Positions 4,891 to 48,926 are shown, counted from the first letter of the stretch. The stretch: 64,000 bases of DNA from Vicinamibacterales bacterium (GCA_963730445.1 CAVSRX010000007.1:115554-179553), one strand, 5' to 3'. Notes: generated by a model not told the origin, from the letters alone. Numbers and translations: made by a program.

Positions 4891-6212
4891 TACGCGACGC
4901 ACGTCCTGCTCTCGGCGCTCCGCGGCGCCATCTCGTGGACCGCGCCGCGCGTCAGATCGACGACGACCTGATCGGGCCGCGCGACCGCAAGCACCTTCAA
5001 GGCATCCTGCCCGGCCGTGCCGAACACGAGCACTTCCGCGTGCTCGGCCAGGCATTCCGGCGTGTCGCACAAGAGCGACGACACATGCGGGATCTCCTGC
5101 TCGATATAACTGCGATTGGCGCCCTTCAGCCGCGCCATCACCACATTCGGGTCGTAAATCTTCACGTCGCAGCCTTTGCCGATGAGCGTTTCGACGAGCG
5201 TCACCATCGGGCTCTCGCGCAAATCGTCGGTATTCGACTTGAACGCGAGACCGACGACGCCGACCTTCTTCTTGCGCGTCTGCAGAACGGCATCCACCCC
5301 GCGCGCAATCTGCGCCTTGTTGGACTGGACAACGGCCGTCAGCACAGGTGTCGAAACGTCGTAGATGCGTCCCGAGCAGAGCAGCGCGCGCACATCCTTC
5401 GGCAGGCACGACCCGCCGAACGCGAATCCTGGCTTCAGGTAGGCCGGCGCGATGTTGAGCTTCTTGTCCTGCCGAAACACGCGCATCACGTCCTGCGCGT
5501 CGGCGCCGAGCGCATCGCAGAGGTCGGCGATCTCGTTGGTGAACGTAATCTTCAGGGCGTGGAATGCATTGCACACGTACTTGACCATTTCTGCCGTGCG
5601 CACGGACGTCTGCAGGAACGGAGCGCTGATGCTCGCATACAGCTGACGCAGCGCCGTCGCCGTATCGGGATCGTCGCACCCCACCAGCACGAAGGGCGGC
5701 TGATCGAAGTCTTCGATCGACGAGCCTTCGCGCATGAACTCGGGATTGACGGCGATGCGCAGGGGCCCGGCCATGCGGCCGCCGTTGGAACATTCCGACA
5801 ACACGCGCGCGAGCACGCGCTCGGTCGTGCCAGGCAGCACGGTGCTGCGCAGCACCACAGTGAGCGGAGTCGTGCGCGACTCGCATGCCGCGCCGATGGC
5901 CGACGCGACGCGCGCGAGCCCGTCGTAGTCGGGCTGACCGTGGCCGAGGTCGGGTGTGCCCACACAGATGAGCGCGACATCCGCATCGGCAAGGCCCTCT
6001 TCAGCCGAGTCCGTGGCCGACAGCCGCCCCTGCCGCACGACGCGCGAGACGAGATCGGCGAGCCCCGGCTCGATAATCGGCGACGAGCCCGCGTTGATCA
6101 TCGCCACCTTCTCGGCGTTCACGTCGACGCCGATCACATGATGACCATCGCGCGCGAGGCAGGCGGCCGTGACACATCCGACATATCCGAGACCGAAGAC
6201 ACTGACGTTCAT
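4890..6212 (-). CDS. nucleotide-sugar 6-dehydrogenase (UDP-glucose/GDP-mannose dehydrogenase family, AlgD-like)
   Basis: ORF 4890..6833 trimmed to the ATG at 6212. It starts MNVSVFGLGYVGCVTAACLA (Rossmann GxGxxG) and contains NPEFMREG and GFAFGGSCLPKDVRAL catalytic-Cys motifs. There is an ATGA overlap with the upstream deacetylase stop (6209-6212). Confidence 0.9.
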   Translation of the reverse strand: MNVSVFGLGYVGCVTAACLARDGHHVIGVDVNAEKVAMINAGSSPIIEPGLADLVSRVVRQGRLSATDSAEEGLADADVALICVGTPDLGHGQPDYDGLARVASAIGAACESRTTPLTVVLRSTVLPGTTERVLARVLSECSNGGRMAGPLRIAVNPEFMREGSSIEDFDQPPFVLVGCDDPDTATALRQLYASISAPFLQTSVRTAEMVKYVCNAFHALKITFTNEIADLCDALGADAQDVMRVFRQDKKLNIAPAYLKPGFAFGGSCLPKDVRALLCSGRIYDVSTPVLTAVVQSNKAQIARGVDAVLQTRKKKVGVVGLAFKSNTDDLRESPMVTLVETLIGKGCDVKIYDPNVVMARLKGANRSYIEQEIPHVSSLLCDTPECLAEHAEVLVFGTAGQDALKVLAVARPDQVVVDLTRGAVHEMAPRSAESRTCVA

Positions 6213-8962: not shown

Positions 8963-10881
8963 TCATCACCTGCATGACCGTTGCGGGGTCTTCGCCCTCG
9001 CAGAACATGCGCTGCCAGATTTCGAGATTCACCAGCAGCCACAACCGATCGCCGTGCTTGCCGCGCCCCGACCGGTGTTCGTCGGCCATGCGCGCAAGCG
9101 ACGCGCGATCGAAGTACCCGCGGCTCGTCGCGCGCGGGCCGAGCACGAACTCCTGCACGACCGGCCAGAAATCGTCACGCAGCCAGCGGCCGACCGGCAC
9201 CGGAAATCCCATCTTCTTGCGCGTGAGAATCTCGGCCGGAATGATGTCGCGCACCGCTTCGCGGAAGATCGCCTTGGTCTGCCACATGCGCACCTTGAGA
9301 TCGCTCGGCAGCGCGGCGACGTGCTCGACGAGCTCGTCGTCGAGAAACGGCACGCGGCTCTCGATCGAGGCCGCCATGCTCATCTGGTCCTGCTTCATCA
9401 GCAGCTCGTGCAGATACGTCTGCAGATCCGTGCGGCTCATGCGATCGAGGATGTCTCCCTCGGCGTCCGCATAGCACTGCATCTGCACGGCGTAGGGATC
9501 GCGGCGGGCGAGCATCTCAGGGCGCGAGAGCAGCGTCCGCTGCACATCCGCGGTATGCACGGCAAAGTTTTCGAGGAACAGGCTGCGGATGCCAGGATCG
9601 AGCGCGAGGAACGTCCGCTCGCCCACGCGTCCAAGCCGCGACGGCAGCGCCTGCACCATGCGGCGCACCTGAGTGCGCAGCGCCGCCGGCATCGCGGCCC
9701 AATACGGCCGCCCCAGTCTGTCGTTCCACATCGTCACGCGATAGCGGTTGTAGCCGAGGAACAGCTCGTCGGCGCCCTCGCCGGTCAGCACGACCTTGAC
9801 GTGGTTGCGCGCCAGCTTGGCGACGAAGTAGAGCGGCACGCTCGACGGAAACGCAATCGGCTCGTCTTCGTGCCACACGAGATGCGGCAGCGCTTCGAAG
9901 AAGTCGGACGGCGTGACCGTGACATCGCGGTGCTCGCGCCAATCGCGCTTGGCCACGGTCCGCGCGTACGGGAGCTCGTTCGCCTCTGCCTCTGCGAACC
10001 CGACAGAGAACGATTGGATCGGGATCGCGCACCTGCGCGAGACATCATGGCCGCGAGCGCGCTCGAATCGAGTCCGCCTGAGAGGAACACGCCGAGCGGC
10101 ACGTCGCTCATCAGGTGGCTTTCGACCGACGCTTCGAGGCGCGCGCGAAGGTCTTTCGCCTGCGCCTCGAACGGAATGTCGCGCACATCGCTCGAAGGGG
10201 CGGGCAGCTGCCAGTAGCGGCGTGTGCGAATCCCCTTCTCCGCCGACCAGGTGAGCACGTGACCCGGCAGCAGCTTCCGCACGCCGTGGAAGAACGTGTC
10301 GGCTCCCGACACGAAGCGCGTCGAGAGATACTCGGGCAGCACTTCTTCGTTGAAGGTCGCCCGAACGCAGCCCGAGGCGAAGAGCGACTTGATTTCCGAC
10401 CCGAACACGAGCTCGCTGCCCGTGCTGGCGTAGTAGAGCGGCTTGATGCCCAGCCGATCGCGCGCGAGCAGCAGCTCCTGCTTCTTCTTGTCCCAGATCG
10501 CGAAGGCGAACATCCCGTGCAGCTTCTCCACGCACGCGTCGCCGTCCTCTTCGTACAGATGGATGATCGTTTCGGTGTCGCACCGCGATGCGATAGCGGT
10601 GCCCCTTCGCCTCGAGGCCCGGCCGCAGTCGAGGCGTGGTTGTAGATCTCGCCGTTGAAGGCGATCCACACGCTGCCGTCCTCGTTGGTCATCGGCTGCT
10701 CGCCGGCCGAGCTGACGTCGACGATGGCGAGCCGCCGGTGCGCGAGGCCGACGGCACCGTCGATGAACAGACCGGCGCCGTCGGGACCGCGATGGCTCAA
10801 CACATCGCGCATCCGGCGGAGACGATCCACGTCGACGGGCTGACGCGGGTCGAAATGAGCGATGCCAGCAAAGCCACACAT
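8862..10881 (-). pseudogene. asnB: asparagine synthetase B-type glutamine amidotransferase (exosortase-locus type), at least 3 frameshifts
   Basis: MCGFAGIAH..NGEIYNH lies in the frame of ORF 10111..10881. [43 protein letters not shown] lies in the frame of ORF 9785..10879. IQSFSVGFAE..VLTGEGADELFLGY..DLQTYLHELLMKQDQMSMAASIESRVPFLD lies in the frame of ORF 8862..10583. Two shifts fall within ~60 nt at 10585-10640. The 3' end overlaps the next gene by ~100 nt, so the true stop is uncertain. Confidence 0.8.
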
Positions 10882-10887
10882 AGATTT

Positions 10888-10923
10888 ATCTACTGATCTA
10901 GAGATCTACTGATCTCGAGATCT
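10888..10923. repeat. AT-rich 16-nt direct repeat (ATCTACTGATCTNGAG x2 plus a partial copy), with two AGATCT sites
   Basis: atctactgatct at 10888-10899 recurs at 10904-10915. This is the only AT-rich patch in this part of the operon. It spans the heparinase-like stop (10906-10908) and the 24-nt spacer before the asnB ATG (10881). No SD-like motif precedes that ATG. Confidence 0.6.
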
Positions 10924-42439: not shown

Positions 42440-43457
42440 CTAACGCGCTGCGCCACCTGCGGGATGCTCGCGTACGACTGCGCGAGCATCCTTGTCACCC
42501 CGCATTCCCACGAACGCGGAATGGCGCAAGTTGCCGTCGCGGGTCCACTCGGTAAAGGCAATCTCGGCGACAAGCGTGGGTTTCACCCACTTGAGGAGCT
42601 TCATGTCCTCCACCGTCACGCCTTCGCCCCAATGGCCTGTCCGGGTGCTCGGCAGATCGGTGAACGGACACGTCTCGACTTTCAACGGGCGCAGCAGGTC
42701 GAACAGCGCGGCGCGCTGCGGCGCCGTGAATCCGGCGCGCACGCGTGCGGCAAACCGCAGCTGCTTGTTCTCGTAATATCCGACGACAATGGATTGAAAG
42801 TTGGTGTTCTCCGGTTTGTAGCCGCCGATGACGAACTCCTGGCGAAGCTGCACCTTGAATTTCTGCCAGACGCCGCTGCGCTTGCCGGCTTCATATCGCG
42901 AGTTTCGCCGTTTCGCAACGACACCTTCGAGCCCGACATCCGAAACAGCTTGAATGACATCGCTCAGCTGTACCGGGAAGCTCTGCTGAAAACACCACGT
43001 CGGAACCGCTCAGGACTCTCTCCAGCGCGGCACGGCGCGCCTCGAGAGGCTCGGCCTGCAGATCCTTTCCGTTGAGATGGAGCAAATCGAATGCGAAGTA
43101 CCGTATCGCCGCGGGGTTGGCGGAACGGTGGTGGAGCTGTTGAAACGATGGGCGTCCGGTTTCGTCGAAGGCGACGATCTCGCCGTCGACCACGGCAGAC
43201 TTCGCTTTCAACGCGGCGACCGCTTGCCTGATTGCCGGGTAATTCGCGGTCAGGTCGTTTCCCTTGCGCGACAGGATCTTCACGCTCGCGCCGTCCTTCA
43301 ACGTCAGCGCGCGGTATCCGTCGAACTTCGCTTCGTACAGCCAGTCGTTGCCCGTCGGCAGCGCATCGACCAGGGCGGCGGCCATGGGCTCGACAAAGCG
43401 CACTGCCGATAAGACTGGTATGGCCCGTTTCATTCTGGCGGTTCTATTCTTCTTCAT
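42440..43457 (-). pseudogene. ATP-dependent DNA ligase (LigD ligase-domain type), one frameshift
   Basis: ORF 42891..43457 holds ..NDWLYEAKFDGYRAL (motif I KxDG) ..VVDGEIVAF. After ..AELPGT the sequence continues in the frame of ORF 42440..42853 (QLSDVIQAVSDVGLEGVVAKRRNSRYEAGKRSGVWQKFKVQLRQEFVIGGY..LRHSAFVGMRGDK). The join is near 42985. No Ku gene in the window. Confidence 0.8.
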
Positions 43458-44152
43458 CGGCAGCGCCGACGCGCAAGCGCAAAGTCACTGGGAGTATCTC
43501 TCGAAAACCCCAGAGCGTCTCATCGGGCTTCTCGATTTGCCGGACATCGTCGCGGGTGGCTGCGGCCCGGCACCGAACCGAACCACGACGCGCGCGTTCG
43601 GCGCACCTTCGCAGAATGGACGCAGCGTTGGAACGATTTACATGCGCGACGATGCGGAACGCCGGCTGCGGATTGATGATTGAGAAGACCGGCGGCTCGA
43701 AAGAGGAAATTCCCACGCTGGAGAGCGGTTACGAAATCCCGGCGGCCATCGTCTACGAACGGCGCGGTGCGTGGTTGCGCATCAGGCTGAGCGTCGGTTC
43801 GGCCTGGGTACGACACGCCGACCAGAAGGATTTTCTTCAATATCCCGAAATCCTCCGCGAGAACCTTCCGTACACGCTGCAAAGCTGGGACGGCATGCTC
43901 CGCGCGACGCCCGGCCGTTCCGGGCGGGTCACGCCTCTCTCGTCGGGATGGAAGGCGTTACTCGATCGCCAGTTGAGCATCCAGTATCTCGGCTCTCGAA
44001 GAGTGGGCGATGAACTGTGGCTACACATTCGGCTGGCTGCAAAGAGCGGGTGCGACCAGACCTACGAGGGTGTGACAGATGTCGCGGGATGGATTCCCGC
44101 ATATCAGCCCGATCGGACGCCTTCGGCTCGGTTCGCGTCGAGGGGATGCTAG
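43420..44152 (+). pseudogene. secreted hypothetical protein, one frameshift
   Basis: ATG 43420. Signal peptide MARFILAVLFFFIGSADAQA (frame of ORF 43264..43683), continuing in ORF 43232..44152 (..GCGLMIEKTGGSKEEIPTLESGYEIPAAIVYERRGAWLRIRL..). The join is near 43660. Confidence 0.45.
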
Positions 44153-44165
44153 ACTGAGACGCAGT

Positions 44166-44242
44166 CGGGGCGTAGCGCAGCCTGGTAGCGCACCTGCCTT
44201 GGGCGCAGGGGGTCGCTGGTTCGAATCCAGTCGCCCCGACCA
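44166..44242 (+). tRNA. tRNA-Pro (anticodon TGG)
   Basis: Cloverleaf folded by hand. Acceptor CGGGGCG/CGCCCCG; D-arm GCGC-AGCCTGGTA-GCGC; anticodon arm CCTGC-CTTGGGC-GCAGG; variable loop GGGTC; T-arm GCTGG-TTCGAAT-CCAGT; discriminator A; encoded CCA. 77 nt. Confidence 0.93.
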
Positions 44243-44261
44243 CTTAGAATCAATCACTTAA

Positions 44262-44287
44262 GGCTCGGCCATCCGCCGGGCCTTTTT
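44262..44287 (+). terminator. rho-independent terminator candidate after tRNA-Pro
   Basis: GGCTCGGC-CATCC-GCCGGGCC (8-bp stem with one G-T pair) followed by TTTTT. Confidence 0.6.
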
Positions 44288-44339
44288 CATTTGTGCAACG
44301 TTTGGGCAACTCAGCCACCCTTCCCGCCGTCCCCCTCCA

Positions 44340-45251
44340 GTGTCGATCATCTGTTTCGACGCGAACGCCGCCACGAACGACGACGTACAGAAGGCCACAC
44401 GGGCGACCGCGGCCATGCTGGAGAAGCGTGGAGCCGTCGTGCGTATCGCGCGGGTGCCTGTCGAGGACGGTGTCAACGGGCCGGACGACTTCATCGGCCA
44501 GCATGGTGCCGTAGCGTTCTGGAAGCTGATCGACGCCGCGGTCCCATGCACCACCACGAAGAACGCTGGCACACAAGATGAGGCGACGAAGGACTCGCAG
44601 GCGACGATCCTGGTTCGGCTGGCCCGCGAAGCCGGCGCCGAGTTCTTCCACGACGACGACACGTCCTATTTCGGTGTGTGCGTCGGCGATCACCGGGAGA
44701 CACACAAACTCCGCTCGCGTAGCGGCAAAGCCTGGCTCGTCTCACTGTTCGTCGACAAGTTCGACAAGTCGCCGGGATCGCAGGCCATGGCGGACGCCGC
44801 GAACACGCTCGAGGCGCTGGCTCTTCGAGGTTCAGAAGAGCGCGTGTACGTGCGCATCGCAGCCGTAGACGGCAGGATCTATATCGACCTGGTCGATGCT
44901 ACCTGGCGCTGCATCGAGATCAACCGCACAAGCTGGCGCATCATTTCCAACCCGCCAGTCCGATTCCGCCGGCCGAAGGGGCTGCTTCCTCTTCCAGTGC
45001 CCCAACCCGGAGGAAGTGTCAGCGATTTGCGGAAGTTCGTGAACGTCACGACCGACAACGACTTCGTCTTGCTCGTCTCATTGCTCGTGGCGTGGCTCCG
45101 CGGGCGGGGACCGTATCCCGTGCTCGTGGAGAACGGCGAGCAAGGGAGCGCGAAGTCGACCCTGACGCGCATCCTCAATGCCACTTCTAGAGGTCGATTT
45201 CTGATTCAACACTTTGCAGAAGTTGTCAGCGGCCGTACAAGTTCACGGTGA
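44340..45251 (+). pseudogene. primase/helicase-like replication protein fragment (Toprim-like C-part plus Walker A, truncated at both ends)
   Basis: It starts mid-domain (IICFDANAATNDDV..RIARVPVEDGVNGPDDFIGQHG, Toprim-like) and stops ~20 codons after a P-loop (VLVENGEQGSAKSTLTRIL). Proteins of this type normally continue for several hundred more residues. Confidence 0.55.
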
Positions 45252-45347
45252 ACCGTGGTGAGTTCGATGCTCTGCAATTGCGTCGCGCGCGTTCGGATTC
45301 GGATGTCAGGGAGCTTATCGAACAACACCCTGACAGAAGATGAACCG

Positions 45348-45518
45348 CTACTGAAGGGTATCTGGAAGGCGGGGAAAACGCCGCTCAATGGTCCACTCGT
45401 GCGCGCAGGGAGCGCACCGCAGGTAAATGAGCAGCTGCGTAGCGTTGAGCGTCAGCTTATACGGTGTGCACGTCTCTTGGCAGTTGGGGCATGGATGCGA
45501 TTCTTGAGCGTCAGCCAT
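45348..45518 (-). CDS. 56-aa zinc-ribbon protein (below the ORF-track cut-off)
   Basis: Hand translation: MADAQESHPCPNCQETCTPYKLTLNATQLLIYLRCAPCAHEWTIERRFPRLPDTLQ-TAG. It has a CPxC..CxxC.(H)xW layout like 39376..39570. Confidence 0.4.
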   Translation of the reverse strand: MADAQESHPCPNCQETCTPYKLTLNATQLLIYLRCAPCAHEWTIERRFPRLPDTLQ

Positions 45519-45624
45519 TAGGGTAATCTACACACGACTCAACAGACTATGACGTGCAAGGCTTTTGCCTATGGCGTGCCGCTAAAAGGGCGGTGCGCGA
45601 GTCGCGCGAGAAAGGCAAAAAATA

Positions 45625-45846
45625 GTGGACCCGATCCAAAAGCGCGGGCCGACCGGCGTTGTGAAGGTAAAGAAGGTTGCGGCTCACCAGTTTATTCCAT
45701 TCGTTTGCGGGGATTGCCAGGAAGAATTCCTCTTTAACATTGAGAACGTTGGACATCGACTGATGCGCGATCGACCTTACAAGCGCACGATGCCATGCTC
45801 GTGTGGTGGCGTTATGAAGCGGAGTCGGTTTCGAGCCCCCTTTTAG
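45625..45846 (+). CDS. small zinc-ribbon protein (FmdB-like CxxC..CxCG), tentative
   Basis: ..VKVKKVAAHQFIPFVCGDCQEEFLFNIENVG..RTMPCSCGGVMKR. It competes with antisense ORF 45547..45858. The region is low-GC, so codon bias gives no help. Confidence 0.3.
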   Translation: MDPIQKRGPTGVVKVKKVAAHQFIPFVCGDCQEEFLFNIENVGHRLMRDRPYKRTMPCSCGGVMKRSRFRAPF

Positions 45847-45869
45847 AGGCCGGGCCACCGTGAGGGTCT

Positions 45870-46548
45870 TTAGGTTTTGGCAAAAATGAGCCGCAAGATC
45901 ACACCAACGGCAACTAAGGCGACGCTGGTCGGCTCAGGGACGTTGTTCGAGGGTGAGGGCACAAACGGATCAGCCTCTTGAACAGTCGACGTGCCAGGAA
46001 CCCCAACAGCGGCCGCACCCACTACTGCACCCGCTTGATTTCCTGAGTCGCTTGCATGAGTGGAACCCAGGCCAAGTTCCCCAACGATGTCGGTGATGTC
46101 GAACACGTCCGTGATCGAGGCGCCAGTGGACGCATCATTGGCAAAAACTCCAACTAGCGCGGTCGCTGTCTGGGGGGGCGAAGCCGATACGGAACCAGCG
46201 GTGACGAGATCTTCGATGGTGTTCGAAGTCTGCGAAGCAACGCTCACTTGGCCGATCAAATTGGCCCAGGGCGGCGGGATGTCAGCATGAAGCGATGCGA
46301 CGCTGAAGTTCGCGATTGTTTTCGAGTCGTTCCAGGGCGGCGGTATGTCGGCATGAAGAGACGCTGCGCTGGGATTGGTGCCCAGCGGTGAGTCTGGCGC
46401 GTTCACCAGCGATAAGTCGGACGCTGCGCATTGTGGAAGACATTTCATCAGTCCGGGAAATTCAGTCAGGTCGTTGCCCAGGGTACTGATAAATCGGTAA
46501 CGCATCAACCGTTGAGGCGAGACCGAGCAAAAGAGCACTCGCACACAT
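45870..46548 (-). pseudogene. PEP-CTERM-tailed secreted protein, one frameshift
   Basis: The C-terminus ..NNVPEPTSVALVAVGVILRLIFAKT has VPEP, a TM segment and basic residues. The signal peptide MCASALLLGLASTVDA-LPIYQYPG starts at ATG 46548 in another frame. It joins ORF 45870..46544 (..NDLTEFPGLMKCLPQC..) if the C3 run at 46477-46479 loses one base. An internal repeat ASLHADIPPPW occurs twice. Confidence 0.65.
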
Positions 46549-46724
46549 GAGATGTTTAGGATTTAAAGCCACGGAGTTCTCCTGGGGGAAGTTGACCACC
46601 ACAAACACTTATAGCGCAGCGGTAATGTCGCGGCAATGCAAATTGCCAGAAGCGCTGAAGTCGTCAGGACGGCGACCTTTAGTCCGCAAATCAGCGTCGC
46701 AGAAGCCGTGGCGGCGAGTGGCTC

Positions 46725-47678
46725 GTGATTGACATCACGACCGACGCCATCGAGCAGTATCGTGAGGCGCGTTTACCATCCGGGCTCGCCGCGACGAATC
46801 GGGATCTATCGCTGCTCCGGGCGATGTTCAATTGGGCGATTCGCACAAAGCATGTGAAAGAAACACCATTCAAACTAGGGACAGAGTCGATCGTGAGACT
46901 GGCTCGCGAAGCCCCGCGGTCTCGCCGGCTTGAACCTGGGGAGGGTGAGCGGCTGCTCGCGGCCTGCGGGCCGCACCTTCGCGCCGTGGTCGAGGCAGCG
47001 CTCGAGACGGGGATGCGCCGCGGCGAAATCTTGTCGTTACAGTGGTCACAGATGCGATCGGAGCCACGGGCGGAGGTGTTTTTGCCGGCGAGCAAGACGA
47101 AGACACGAACCGATCGCCGGATCCCGATCTCGGGGCGGTTGCAGATGATTATCGACATGCGGAAGATCGGCCCCGATGGGCAGGAACACGCGGCCGATGA
47201 CTACGTCTTCGGGAACGAGTGCGGCGAACAGGTGACGACGTTCAAACGGGCATGGGAACGCGCGGTGCTGGTGGCTCACGGCCACAAGGCGCAGTACGTG
47301 AAGCGCGAGGCTGGCGAAGGCAAGAAGCCTGTGAAGACGGCCGTGTTGACGATCGAGAGCCGCGTGCTACTCCGCGGCATCAACCTACACTTCCACGATC
47401 TTCGGCGCGAGGCCGGCTCACGATGGCTGGAAGGCGGCGTCGGGTTGCACATCGTGCGTGACTGGCTCGGCCATACAAACGTCGCGCAGACGTCCACGTA
47501 CTTGTCGGGCACGATGCAGGGTCAGCACGACGCGATGAAGCAGGACCAAGCCCGCCGAGAGGCTGTGCAACAAAGTGCAACGGCATCGGGGAAACCCGGC
47601 AAGAAACGGCGACGACTCGCTATGATCCCGAAGACGAGACCACGAAAGGGTTCAACAATCTCCCATCGGGCACATTAA
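46725..47678 (+). CDS. tyrosine recombinase/integrase, probably N-terminally shortened
   Basis: ALETGMRRGEIL (Arg), HFHDLRREAGS (H-x-x-R), WLGHTNVAQTSTYL (His and the catalytic Tyr). GTG start, only 317 aa, with no arm-binding domain visible. Confidence 0.85.
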   Translation: MIDITTDAIEQYREARLPSGLAATNRDLSLLRAMFNWAIRTKHVKETPFKLGTESIVRLAREAPRSRRLEPGEGERLLAACGPHLRAVVEAALETGMRRGEILSLQWSQMRSEPRAEVFLPASKTKTRTDRRIPISGRLQMIIDMRKIGPDGQEHAADDYVFGNECGEQVTTFKRAWERAVLVAHGHKAQYVKREAGEGKKPVKTAVLTIESRVLLRGINLHFHDLRREAGSRWLEGGVGLHIVRDWLGHTNVAQTSTYLSGTMQGQHDAMKQDQARREAVQQSATASGKPGKKRRRLAMIPKTRPRKGSTISHRAH

Positions 47679-47681
47679 TTT

Positions 47682-47733
47682 CCTGCCTTGGGCGCAGGGG
47701 GTCGCTGGTTCGAATCCAGTCGCCCCGACCACT
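47682..47733 (+). repeat. attR: duplicated 3' 52 nt of tRNA-Pro
   Basis: cctgccttgggcgcagggggtcgctggttcgaatccagtcgccccgaccact is identical to 44193-44244. It lacks the 5' acceptor and D-arm, so it is not a tRNA gene. Confidence 0.9.
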
Positions 47734-47734
47734 C

Positions 47735-48440
47735 CTAATTCGTCACCCTCACGTTAGTCGGGCTGCCGGGGGGTGAAACATTTCCTATCTGGGTAATCGT
47801 CACGGTCTGTCCGGCAATCGTCAGGGTGCCTGTGCGTGACGTGGGCGCCGAGTTAGCCGCCACTGTGTAGCCGGCAGTACCGCTGGATATGGTGCTTCCG
47901 CCGCTGGTGACCGTGATCCACGATGCATTGCTGACCGTGTTCCAGATGCACCCGGTGGTCGTCGTCACGGCGGTGGTGAACGCTCCACCAGCCGCCGCCG
48001 CGGTTTGCGCGTTCGGTGAAATCGTAAAGCTACAAGCGTACCGCTCTGAGTGACGGTGAGCGTCTGTCCCGGCGATCGTTAGCGTTCCGGTGCGCGGACT
48101 GGTCGCGGTGCGCGCCGCGACATTGTAAGTAACCGTGCCAGTGCCTGTGCCGCTGCTGCCGGCCGTGACCGTGATCCACGCCGTACTGTTGCTCACGCCG
48201 GTCCATGTGCATCCGCTCGTCGTGGTCACGGCGGCTGTCTGCGACCCGCCAGCCGCAATCACGCTTTGCGCCGTCGGTGCGATGCTGAAACTGCACGCGC
48301 CCCCCTGGGTGCCGTCACCGTCTGGCCGGCGATCGTCAGCGTGCCGGTGCGCGGAGTGGCCGAGGTGTTTGCTGCCACTGTGTACGCCACAGTGCCGTTC
48401 CCCGTTCCACTTCCGCCGCTTGTGACCGTGATCCAGGACG
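47735..48440 (-). pseudogene. BACON-like/Ig-like repeat protein fragment (three repeats, no start, abrupt end)
   Basis: Three repeats of ..CSF.I.P.AQ...AAGG..T.AVTTT.GC.W..VSN..WITVT.G.SG.G.G.V.Y.VAAN....[15 protein letters not shown] are spread over ORFs 48259..48483, 48030..48296 and 47735..48262. It begins mid-repeat right after the stop of the neighbouring gene (48441). It ends ..PPGSPTNVRVTN-TAG, 1 nt from attR. Confidence 0.6.
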
Positions 48441-48926
48441 CTAGGGGACCCAGCCGGGCAGCGCGGCCGCCTGCCTGATCCACGTCGTCATCTGCGCCTC
48501 GTCGAGCTGGTCGCCCTTGCGGATGTCAAGGTAGCGCACTTCCTTGTGCTTGGACTCGCCAGGCGGGACAGGACGCAGCAACGTGCCGCGGAAGAAAGCC
48601 ACCTTGACGTAATGCGTGAAGGTATGGAAGCTGAGGAACCAGCCCTGGCCCTCGACTCCGTAGAAGGGCGAGTTCCATTTGACCGCCTTGCGCACGCCGG
48701 GGACGGTGCGCTCGATGAGCGCGTCGAGGCGGCGCCCGACGTCGCTTTTCCAGCCCGGCATCGCCGCAATGTAGGCCTGCACGGGAGCGTCGCCGTCGGC
48801 TTTCGCAATCTGAGGGTTGCCGCCTGCGAGGAGCGCCGGCTTTCCGGCAACTCGCCGGGCGGCCCTCTTCTTTGCGACCTTCGCCGATTTCCTCGCGGTC
48901 TTCTTCTTCGCCGCCGCCTTCTTCAT
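48441..48926 (-). CDS. DUF1801 (YdhG-like) domain protein with a Lys/Ala-rich N-terminal tail
   Basis: [25 protein letters not shown].. followed by ..[64 protein letters not shown]. Confidence 0.6.

Follow-up and report, generated by a model that had tools for sequence, protein, structure and literature searches.

Why does a second, exact copy of part of a tRNA gene lie 3.49 kb downstream of the gene itself, and what is the DNA enclosed between the two copies? This question is raised by a stretch of 64,000 nucleotides from a Vicinamibacterales bacterium, a soil member of the Acidobacteriota (GCA_963730445.1 CAVSRX010000007.1:115554-179553), referred to in the following as the window, by which the whole stretch is meant. 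Its sole tRNA gene, as identified by ARAGORN, is tRNA-Pro(TGG), and between this gene and the downstream copy we found an integrase gene, a fragment of a replication gene, a zinc-ribbon gene and a PEP-CTERM-like gene (Table 1). We hold with good confidence that a phage-like integrative element, with an integrase of a lambda-type lineage, inserted at tRNA-Pro and that the enclosed DNA is what deletions have left of it. A preliminary description of the locus had likewise called it a deletion remnant, and this is borne out by a replication gene cut at both ends, an integrase gene whose 5′ end is gone and attachment (att) cores that are perfect.

Attachment repeats, terminator and candidate arm sites

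The element is bounded by a 52-bp direct repeat that is exact, as had been claimed for the 3′ part of the tRNA gene. The two copies are offset by 3489 bp, a third copy is absent from the window, and by our own estimate the chance of an exact 52-bp repeat in 64 kb is ~1e-22. The repeat starts at tRNA nt 28, the first base of the anticodon stem (CCTGC-CTTGGGC-GCAGG), and ends 2 nt past the CCA, comprising the last 50 nt of tRNA-Pro plus 2 nt. The integrase gene was said to end 3 nt before the right copy, and its TAA stop codon is indeed found at 47676-47678, with the repeat beginning at 47682.

The preliminary description read this arrangement as the signature of site-specific integration, and the reading is strengthened by the finding of the same layout, an integrase stop codon followed by a tRNA 3′ half, on five other contigs (L001, L002, L257, L258 and L259). 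The integrases of these contigs are 64-71% identical to the one in the window and their stop codons lie 0-16 nt before the tRNA 3′ half, which in four of the five is clearly that of a tRNA-Pro. This half is of tRNA-Pro, UGG-type, after the L001 integrase and of tRNA-Pro, CGG-type, after those of L257 and L258, while L002 and L259 carry a related kind with a different acceptor stem. On L001, L002 and L257 the gene set ends with the integrase, which comes after TerS/TerL, portal and tape-measure-like genes, and at least part of the lineage is therefore prophage-borne. At the locus under study, the 3′ 50 nt of tRNA-Pro would now be supplied by the element (attL), and the attR core would be the displaced original 3′ half of the host tRNA.

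The intrinsic terminator of the tRNA gene is located past attL, within the element, and an equivalent hairpin occupies the same place past the att core of L259, in agreement with the earlier claim that this terminator is supplied by the element. When 58 nt of the terminator region were folded, an energy of -18.6 kcal/mol and z = -3.4 were obtained. A match to the Rfam family CcsR1 at 47927-48006 was dismissed as chance (24 bits vs a threshold of 65 bits).

Paired short motifs were found ~100 nt upstream and ~45-65 nt downstream of the cores. On the attL side, the pattern TTTG[N]GCAAC is unique within the window to 44290-44310, and GCAAC-N3-6-GCAAC matches the window only twice, at 44290-44310 and at the 3′ end of the integrase gene (int). 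The pair inside int lies ~100 nt before the stop codon and consists of a 6-7-bp motif repeated at a spacing of 10 bp, with the two repeats in different reading frames; it is present in every family member and occupies the same place in L259, L002, L001, L257 and L258, where it is of the type TTGCAA(A/C) twice in all but L001. Past its core, L259 carries a further pair of TTGCAA in the equivalent place, just beyond the terminator hairpin. The motif variant thus co-varies between the two arms, being of the GTGCAAC type in the window and of the TTGCAA type in L259, and the attL flank and the attR integrase of the window are therefore tied to the same element type. Because they flank both cores and co-vary in this way, the paired motifs are candidate arm-type sites of the integrase.

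Among the 116 matches to the tRNA half with enough downstream sequence, two (L045 and L081) have such a motif pair past the tRNA. Both carry a full tRNA-Pro(TGG) with a TTGCAA(C) pair within 15-17 nt (L045 ~4925-4960; L081 ~4925-4957, minus strand). Their 8-kb blocks are without a family integrase, and the genes downstream in L045 encode a HigB toxin and a multicopper oxidase; these loci are possibly further occupied or scarred sites. In L259 (642-5996) the order is zinc-ribbon gene, int, att core, terminator, TTGCAA pair, a 272-aa product, HTH_17, PrimPol and AAA_25. Such an order corresponds either to the attP (excised or circular) arrangement or to a tandem array of a small element of the family, and the contig ends are without overlap.

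Truncated genes and the low-GC middle

The window integrase open reading frame (ORF) matched the Pfam family Phage_integrase with E = 1e-21. Its relatives number 2146 at E <= 0.001; the full-length ones are nearly all 430-470 aa long, those found as the last gene of prophage-like elements being 60-71% identical to the window protein, and the closest ones, where named, belong to Acidobacteriota or Vicinamibacterales. In an alignment of the window protein with 24 family members, R98, K124, H224, R227, H250 and Y259 all fall in invariant columns, and the R, HxxR and Y motifs reported for this protein are accordingly part of a catalytic set in which all six residues are present. In the same 25-sequence alignment the window protein begins at the family motif 'V-x-D-I-T-T-D', with ~140 N-terminal residues missing. 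By tblastn of full-length relatives against the window, family residue 132 to the end was located at 46701-47666, and neither integrase coding sequence N-terminal to residue 132, in any frame of the whole 64 kb, nor a further integrase of the family was found. Since the upstream family sequence is absent in all frames, the truncation is a true deletion and not a frameshift, and the suspected lack of an N-terminal arm-binding domain is confirmed.

The extent of this loss was read from the AlphaFold model of a full-length relative, P0007 (mean predicted local distance difference test score, pLDDT, 84), which has three domains: an N-domain (residues 9-69) with a three-stranded sheet and a helix, a core-binding domain with helices at 90-105, 107-122, 145-156 and 160-180, and then the catalytic domain. 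The top PDB matches of this model were full-length lambda Int (1z1g, 1z1b and 5j0n; E = 3e-9 to 5e-7), and the alignments with the lambda integrase chains span ~390-416 columns. According to the model, the loss goes beyond the arm-binding domain and takes in half of the core-binding domain; of the four core-binding helices the window integrase keeps just the last two, followed by the catalytic domain. Residues ~8-45 of the family N-domain bear a near-invariant C-x-C...W...C-x-H...W pattern on the sheet-plus-helix fold, without recognition by Pfam; the C-x-C...C-x-H pattern suggests a metal-binding variant of the arm-binding domain.

The possibility that the short integrase is a frameshift artefact, as in L260, was ruled out by the tblastn search, which found nothing upstream of residue 132. 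In L260, an 849-kb contig of a metagenome-assembled genome (MAG), a family integrase (9519-10921) is split by a frameshift into ORFs of 161 and 306 aa in different frames, and no tRNA half follows it. A natural short isoform starting with 'M-x-D-I/V-T-T-D' was also rejected, the only case with context being this same frameshifted gene; the common start of the short family proteins is a conserved GTG (Val) codon chosen by gene callers. Scans of IMG/VR with the window integrase and primase fragments as single proteins returned no match, whereas alignment-based scans did.

The second truncated gene encodes a DUF3854 (Toprim-like)-helicase replication protein. As the preliminary description had it, its 303-aa ORF starts in the middle of the Toprim domain: only positions 73-128 of the 130 in the DUF3854 profile were matched. 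The end of the ORF, placed before at ~20 codons after the Walker A, was an approximation. The Walker A (GEQGSAKS) lies at 45135-45158, homology to the family stops 8 codons past it, at 45182, and the stop codon of the ORF is 30 codons past it, the last 23 codons being read-through outside the homology. No continuation of the helicase past 45182 was found in another frame. The parts missing from the window are found in relatives: P0122 holds the upstream part of DUF3854, and in P0123 ~290 helicase residues follow 'GEQGSAKSTL'. A full-length relative of 883 aa, with DUF3854 at residues 126-253, is encoded on the IMG/VR contig L203, where its neighbours are a serine integrase, a ParB-methylase and TerS/TerL. 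The window retains approximately residues 200-480 of a protein of this type, with both ends cut.

The part of the element between the two gene fragments had been described as lower in GC, and this was confirmed, since the GC content is 0.549 over 45183-45869 and 0.564 over 45870-46694, as compared with 0.62-0.64 in the gene fragments and flanks. This middle is not uniform: it is made up of a native zinc-ribbon gene and a distinct PEP-CTERM-like cassette. The small Cys-rich ORFs reported as zinc ribbons, of 56 aa on the minus strand and 73 aa on the plus strand, are both present. The homologue of the 73-aa gene (76 aa, 65% identical) directly precedes and abuts a 449-aa family integrase gene in L259, for which reason we regard the 73-aa gene as native to the element; its product may serve Int as an accessory or directionality factor.

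The product of the cassette gene has a C-terminal VPEP, a hydrophobic helix and a weak basic tail (...RLIFAKT), the traits by which a PEP-CTERM gene had been recognized. The assignment holds for these traits only, given that no NCBIfam or Pfam match was obtained and that the signal peptide is out of frame in the window; in searches of PHROGs, Pfam and NCBIfam, neither this protein nor the small ORFs gave usable matches. The frame of the signal peptide is disrupted by an extra G at 46481 (GGG vs GG), and the gene is intact in two metagenome copies of the remnant (L123 and L256, see below). Only 2 homologues of the protein were found among 5.8 billion clusters. One further locus, L255, has an 84%-identical copy of window 45874-46695, that is, of the gene together with its upstream region, between unrelated flanks. 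The homology with L255 ends at 46694, six bases ahead of the start of the integrase homology, and on the other side at ~45874. These limits indicate that the first ~130-140 int codons gave way to an inverted 0.8-kb cassette, the junction lying at 46694/46695. The substitutions that separate the window from L123/L256 are all within the PEP-CTERM-like gene or its upstream region; four of them are in the coding sequence, where they cause three amino-acid changes, and none is synonymous.

Table 1. Features of the element at tRNA-Pro(TGG), in window coordinates
Feature	Position	Strand	Basis or remark
tRNA-Pro(TGG), intact	44166-44242	+	ARAGORN; Rfam RF00005, 65.5 bits
attL core, left 52-bp copy	44193-44244	+	exact repeat, within tRNA-Pro
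Intrinsic terminator of the tRNA	44260-44289	+	10-bp stem, 5-nt loop (44260-44284), then U5
Candidate P′ arm-type sites, a tandem pair (TTTGTGCAAC, TTTGGGCAAC) spaced by 11 bp	44290-44310	+	motif search
DUF3854 (Toprim-like)-helicase replication protein, internal fragment	44340-45251	+	303-aa ORF; homology 44346-45182
Low-GC spacer	45183-45624	.	identical in L123 and L256
56-aa CPxC...CxxC ORF	45348-45518	-	with an overlapping 88-aa ORF on the plus strand
73-aa zinc-ribbon gene	45625-45846	+	homologue adjoins int in L259
PEP-CTERM-like orphan cassette	45870-46694	-	coding from 45870 to ~46572, plus upstream region
Lambda-type tyrosine integrase gene, 3′ two thirds	46695-47678	+	homology from 46701; annotated ORF 46725-47678, 317 aa
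Candidate P arm-type sites, GTGCAAC twice (47565, 47575), 10 bp apart	47565-47581	+	inside the int 3′ coding region
attR core, right 52-bp copy	47682-47733	+	exact repeat

Origin and mobility of the remnant

These features can be accommodated in the following history. The element would have entered the 3′ half of tRNA-Pro(TGG) by means of its own lambda-type (three-domain, arm-binding) tyrosine integrase. Its attP would have carried the 52-bp tRNA copy, from the anticodon stem to the CCA plus 2 nt, between two arms, one formed by the paired sites in the 3′ end of int and the other by the terminator followed by the second pair. Strand exchange may have taken place in or near the anticodon loop, the stem of which would provide inverted core sites. 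Integration would have left an intact tRNA at attL, with the 3′ half and the terminator of the element, and the host 3′ half at attR. At least three rearrangements, which may have occurred in the order given here, would then have gutted the element: the loss of everything from the P′ arm to codon ~200 of the replication gene, the loss of this gene from just past the Walker A (45182) onward, and the exchange of the first ~130-140 int codons for the inverted 0.8-kb cassette with its secreted PEP-CTERM-like orphan gene. Both att cores, both candidate arm regions and the zinc-ribbon gene survive, and of the integrase there is a stub in which the active site is still complete.

The rearranged structure was also found elsewhere. 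The independent short-read metagenome contigs L123 (JGI Ga0190270) and L256 (ENA ERZ27251491) are 99.6-99.7% identical to window 44770-46697, share the junction at 45182 and extend to the int junction, and a Logan contig of 3495 bp (ERR11630401) covers the interior between the repeats. As the same structure appears in independent contigs, the remnant is a real structure at the population level and not an assembly artefact. The Logan contig carries ~29-30 nt of the repeat at each end; we considered that it might be an excised circle and read it instead as a break of the de Bruijn graph at a repeat longer than k. L123 and L256 break at the same point in the replication fragment (~44770), and one of them ends exactly at the cassette/int junction (46697), which hints that the outer parts of the remnant occur in more than one context in those communities.

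The tRNA gene itself is a frequent target. The same 50-nt tRNA half was found in more than 119 genome stretches, mostly of Acidobacteriota and Vicinamibacterales, and partial (attR-like) copies of it number six. At least three integrase lineages adjoin tRNA-Pro(TGG) across different genomes. In an Acidobacteria MAG (L029, 1660-6308), a different 3.4-kb element has an identical tRNA-Pro half with a repeat offset of 3397 bp; a complete 376-aa integrase lies inside it, and right past attR comes another one, convergent and of a third lineage, so that the locus resembles a hot spot with elements arrayed in tandem. In view of the several integrase lineages and of L029, tRNA-Pro(TGG) is regarded as an integration hot spot.

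A hot spot with such lineages and with the tandem arrangement of L029 also favors a composite origin, in which two or more elements accreted in tandem at tRNA-Pro, the att site in the middle was deleted, and the replication and integrase genes were never part of one element. Consistently with this, integrases of the family are absent from all of the ~130 helicase-family loci examined, L259, which holds the nearest integrase relative for which there is context, has PrimPol and AAA_25 and not a DUF3854-helicase, and the PEP-CTERM-like cassette shows that foreign DNA has entered. On the other side, the motifs next to attL (GTGCAAC/GGGCAAC) match the two GTGCAAC in the 3′ end of int, just as L259 has TTGCAA on both arms, which suggests that both ends belong to one element type. 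Moreover, the replication fragment is placed as the replication module of L259 is, just past the P′ arm and in the same orientation, and related elements commonly swap their replication genes as modules, which we also count against a composite. We therefore consider a composite origin unlikely and prefer a single element that has decayed by deletion.

Some results weigh against this preferred reading. The parental family was recovered in part only: relatives of the integrase and of the replication protein were found, while one intact parent with both modules was not, and this integrase family and this replication family do not occur together on any contig, so that the single parent is a putative one. 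No empty tRNA-Pro site was found in a syntenic relative. The only syntenic locus among the more than 119 stretches with the tRNA half, L048, shares just the left flank (the ligase side) and loses synteny at the tRNA, and a search for an empty site by the exact protein of the DUF1801 neighbor returned no record. The absence of internal stops in the int and replication fragments and the perfect att repeats would also fit an element that is young or still in use. Finally, several neighboring genes look frameshifted, and indel errors may therefore be present in the assembly; such errors do not account for the truncations described here, since the lost sequence is not there in any frame.

The frameshifted neighbors include a LigD-like ATP-dependent DNA ligase gene (42440-43457, minus strand), present as two ORFs in the window and as a single frame in L048. 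A secreted-protein gene just upstream of the tRNA (43232-44152, plus strand), a BACON-repeat gene and the PEP-CTERM-like gene have the same look. Since many of the related genomes are 'MFD' MAGs, the window may come from a long-read assembly that contains indel errors, and local frameshifts are therefore weak evidence for pseudogenes. The BACON-domain repeat gene (47735-48483, minus strand) ends 2 nt past attR and consists of tandem units of 257-258 bp that are 66-75% identical; it is without an obvious signal peptide or N-terminus and may itself be a fragment.

As regards mobility, the integrase stub has no arm-binding domain and only half a core-binding one, and therefore most likely does not excise the element on its own; the remnant is probably not self-mobile. 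It would persist as a fixed island that gives the tRNA its 3′ half and terminator and holds one cargo gene. An element that still moves could be imagined in two ways, either with the short integrase acting as a simple recombinase or with a full-length family integrase, from another place in the genome or from an incoming element, acting in trans on the att sites, in the manner of cis-mobilizable elements (CIMEs), which are att-flanked derivatives of integrative and conjugative elements without recombination genes. The perfect 52-bp cores and both candidate arm regions have been kept, the catalytic set is full over 317 codons without a stop, the 73-aa gene, a companion of int in L259, is retained, and the integrase family is abundant in Acidobacteriota metagenomes, as the number of its matches indicates. 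All this would be in favor of mobility. Nevertheless, the protein lacks its arm-binding domain as well as the first half of its core-binding domain, and, to our knowledge, lambda Int fragments without the N-domain perform neither integrative nor excisive recombination. Furthermore, the identically rearranged integrated form was found in three additional assemblies that derive from different samples or runs, with no junction variant seen, and a second family integrase is absent from the window. Continued mobility is thus extremely improbable in our judgement. Also very unlikely is the notion that the remnant is a minimal att-flanked, CIME-like hitch-hiker, made up of both cores, both arm regions, the zinc-ribbon gene as an accessory and one secreted cargo gene, and excised and moved in trans by a full-length family integrase; if so, it would spread a fast-evolving PEP-CTERM-like surface protein among Vicinamibacterales.

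Significance and comparison with known systems

The finding leaves the known working of such elements unchanged, and the remnant is an ordinary kind of genomic fossil. Its main value is for annotation, as it marks tRNA-Pro(TGG) of Acidobacteriota as an integration hot spot. It also defines a large, previously uncharacterised integrase lineage together with its att layout, with the core adjoining the stop codon of int and candidate arm sites within int, and it illustrates cleanly how deletions can erode the genes of an element while its att sites and the terminator that restores the tRNA stay in place.

Integration into tRNA genes has been classified by sublocation into the anticodon loop, the T loop and the 3′ end, and for some integrase groups the recombination sites begin at the anticodon loop and reach as far as the CCA (bioRxiv 10.1101/2020.11.02.365908). 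The element described here resembles lambda-type tRNA-integrating elements in its identity block, which takes in everything between the anticodon stem and the 3′ end, in the regeneration of the tRNA at attL, in an int gene that abuts attP, in the three-domain model of the family and in the candidate arm repeats that flank the core. It differs from them in that the window integrase occupies the distal end (attR) and points the same way as the tRNA, with the family stop codon 0-16 nt before the core, and in the N-terminal C-x-C...C-x-H pattern of the family, a domain that is wholly absent from the window copy.

CyRepA, a Rep protein of cyanobacterial plasmids, likewise combines DUF3854 with a helicase (PMC10079941), and the replication fragment agrees with it in domain order, DUF3854 being followed by a P-loop helicase. 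Unlike CyRepA, the window fragment keeps only the last ~55 DUF3854 positions, a linker domain and the Walker A, and the closest full-length relatives of the window protein are found in phage-like contigs, not in plasmids.

Finally, the locus resembles cryptic prophages, island remnants and CIMEs in having intact att sites, gutted recombination and replication genes and cargo that has been kept, and it differs from CIMEs in still having a stub of the integrase catalytic domain.

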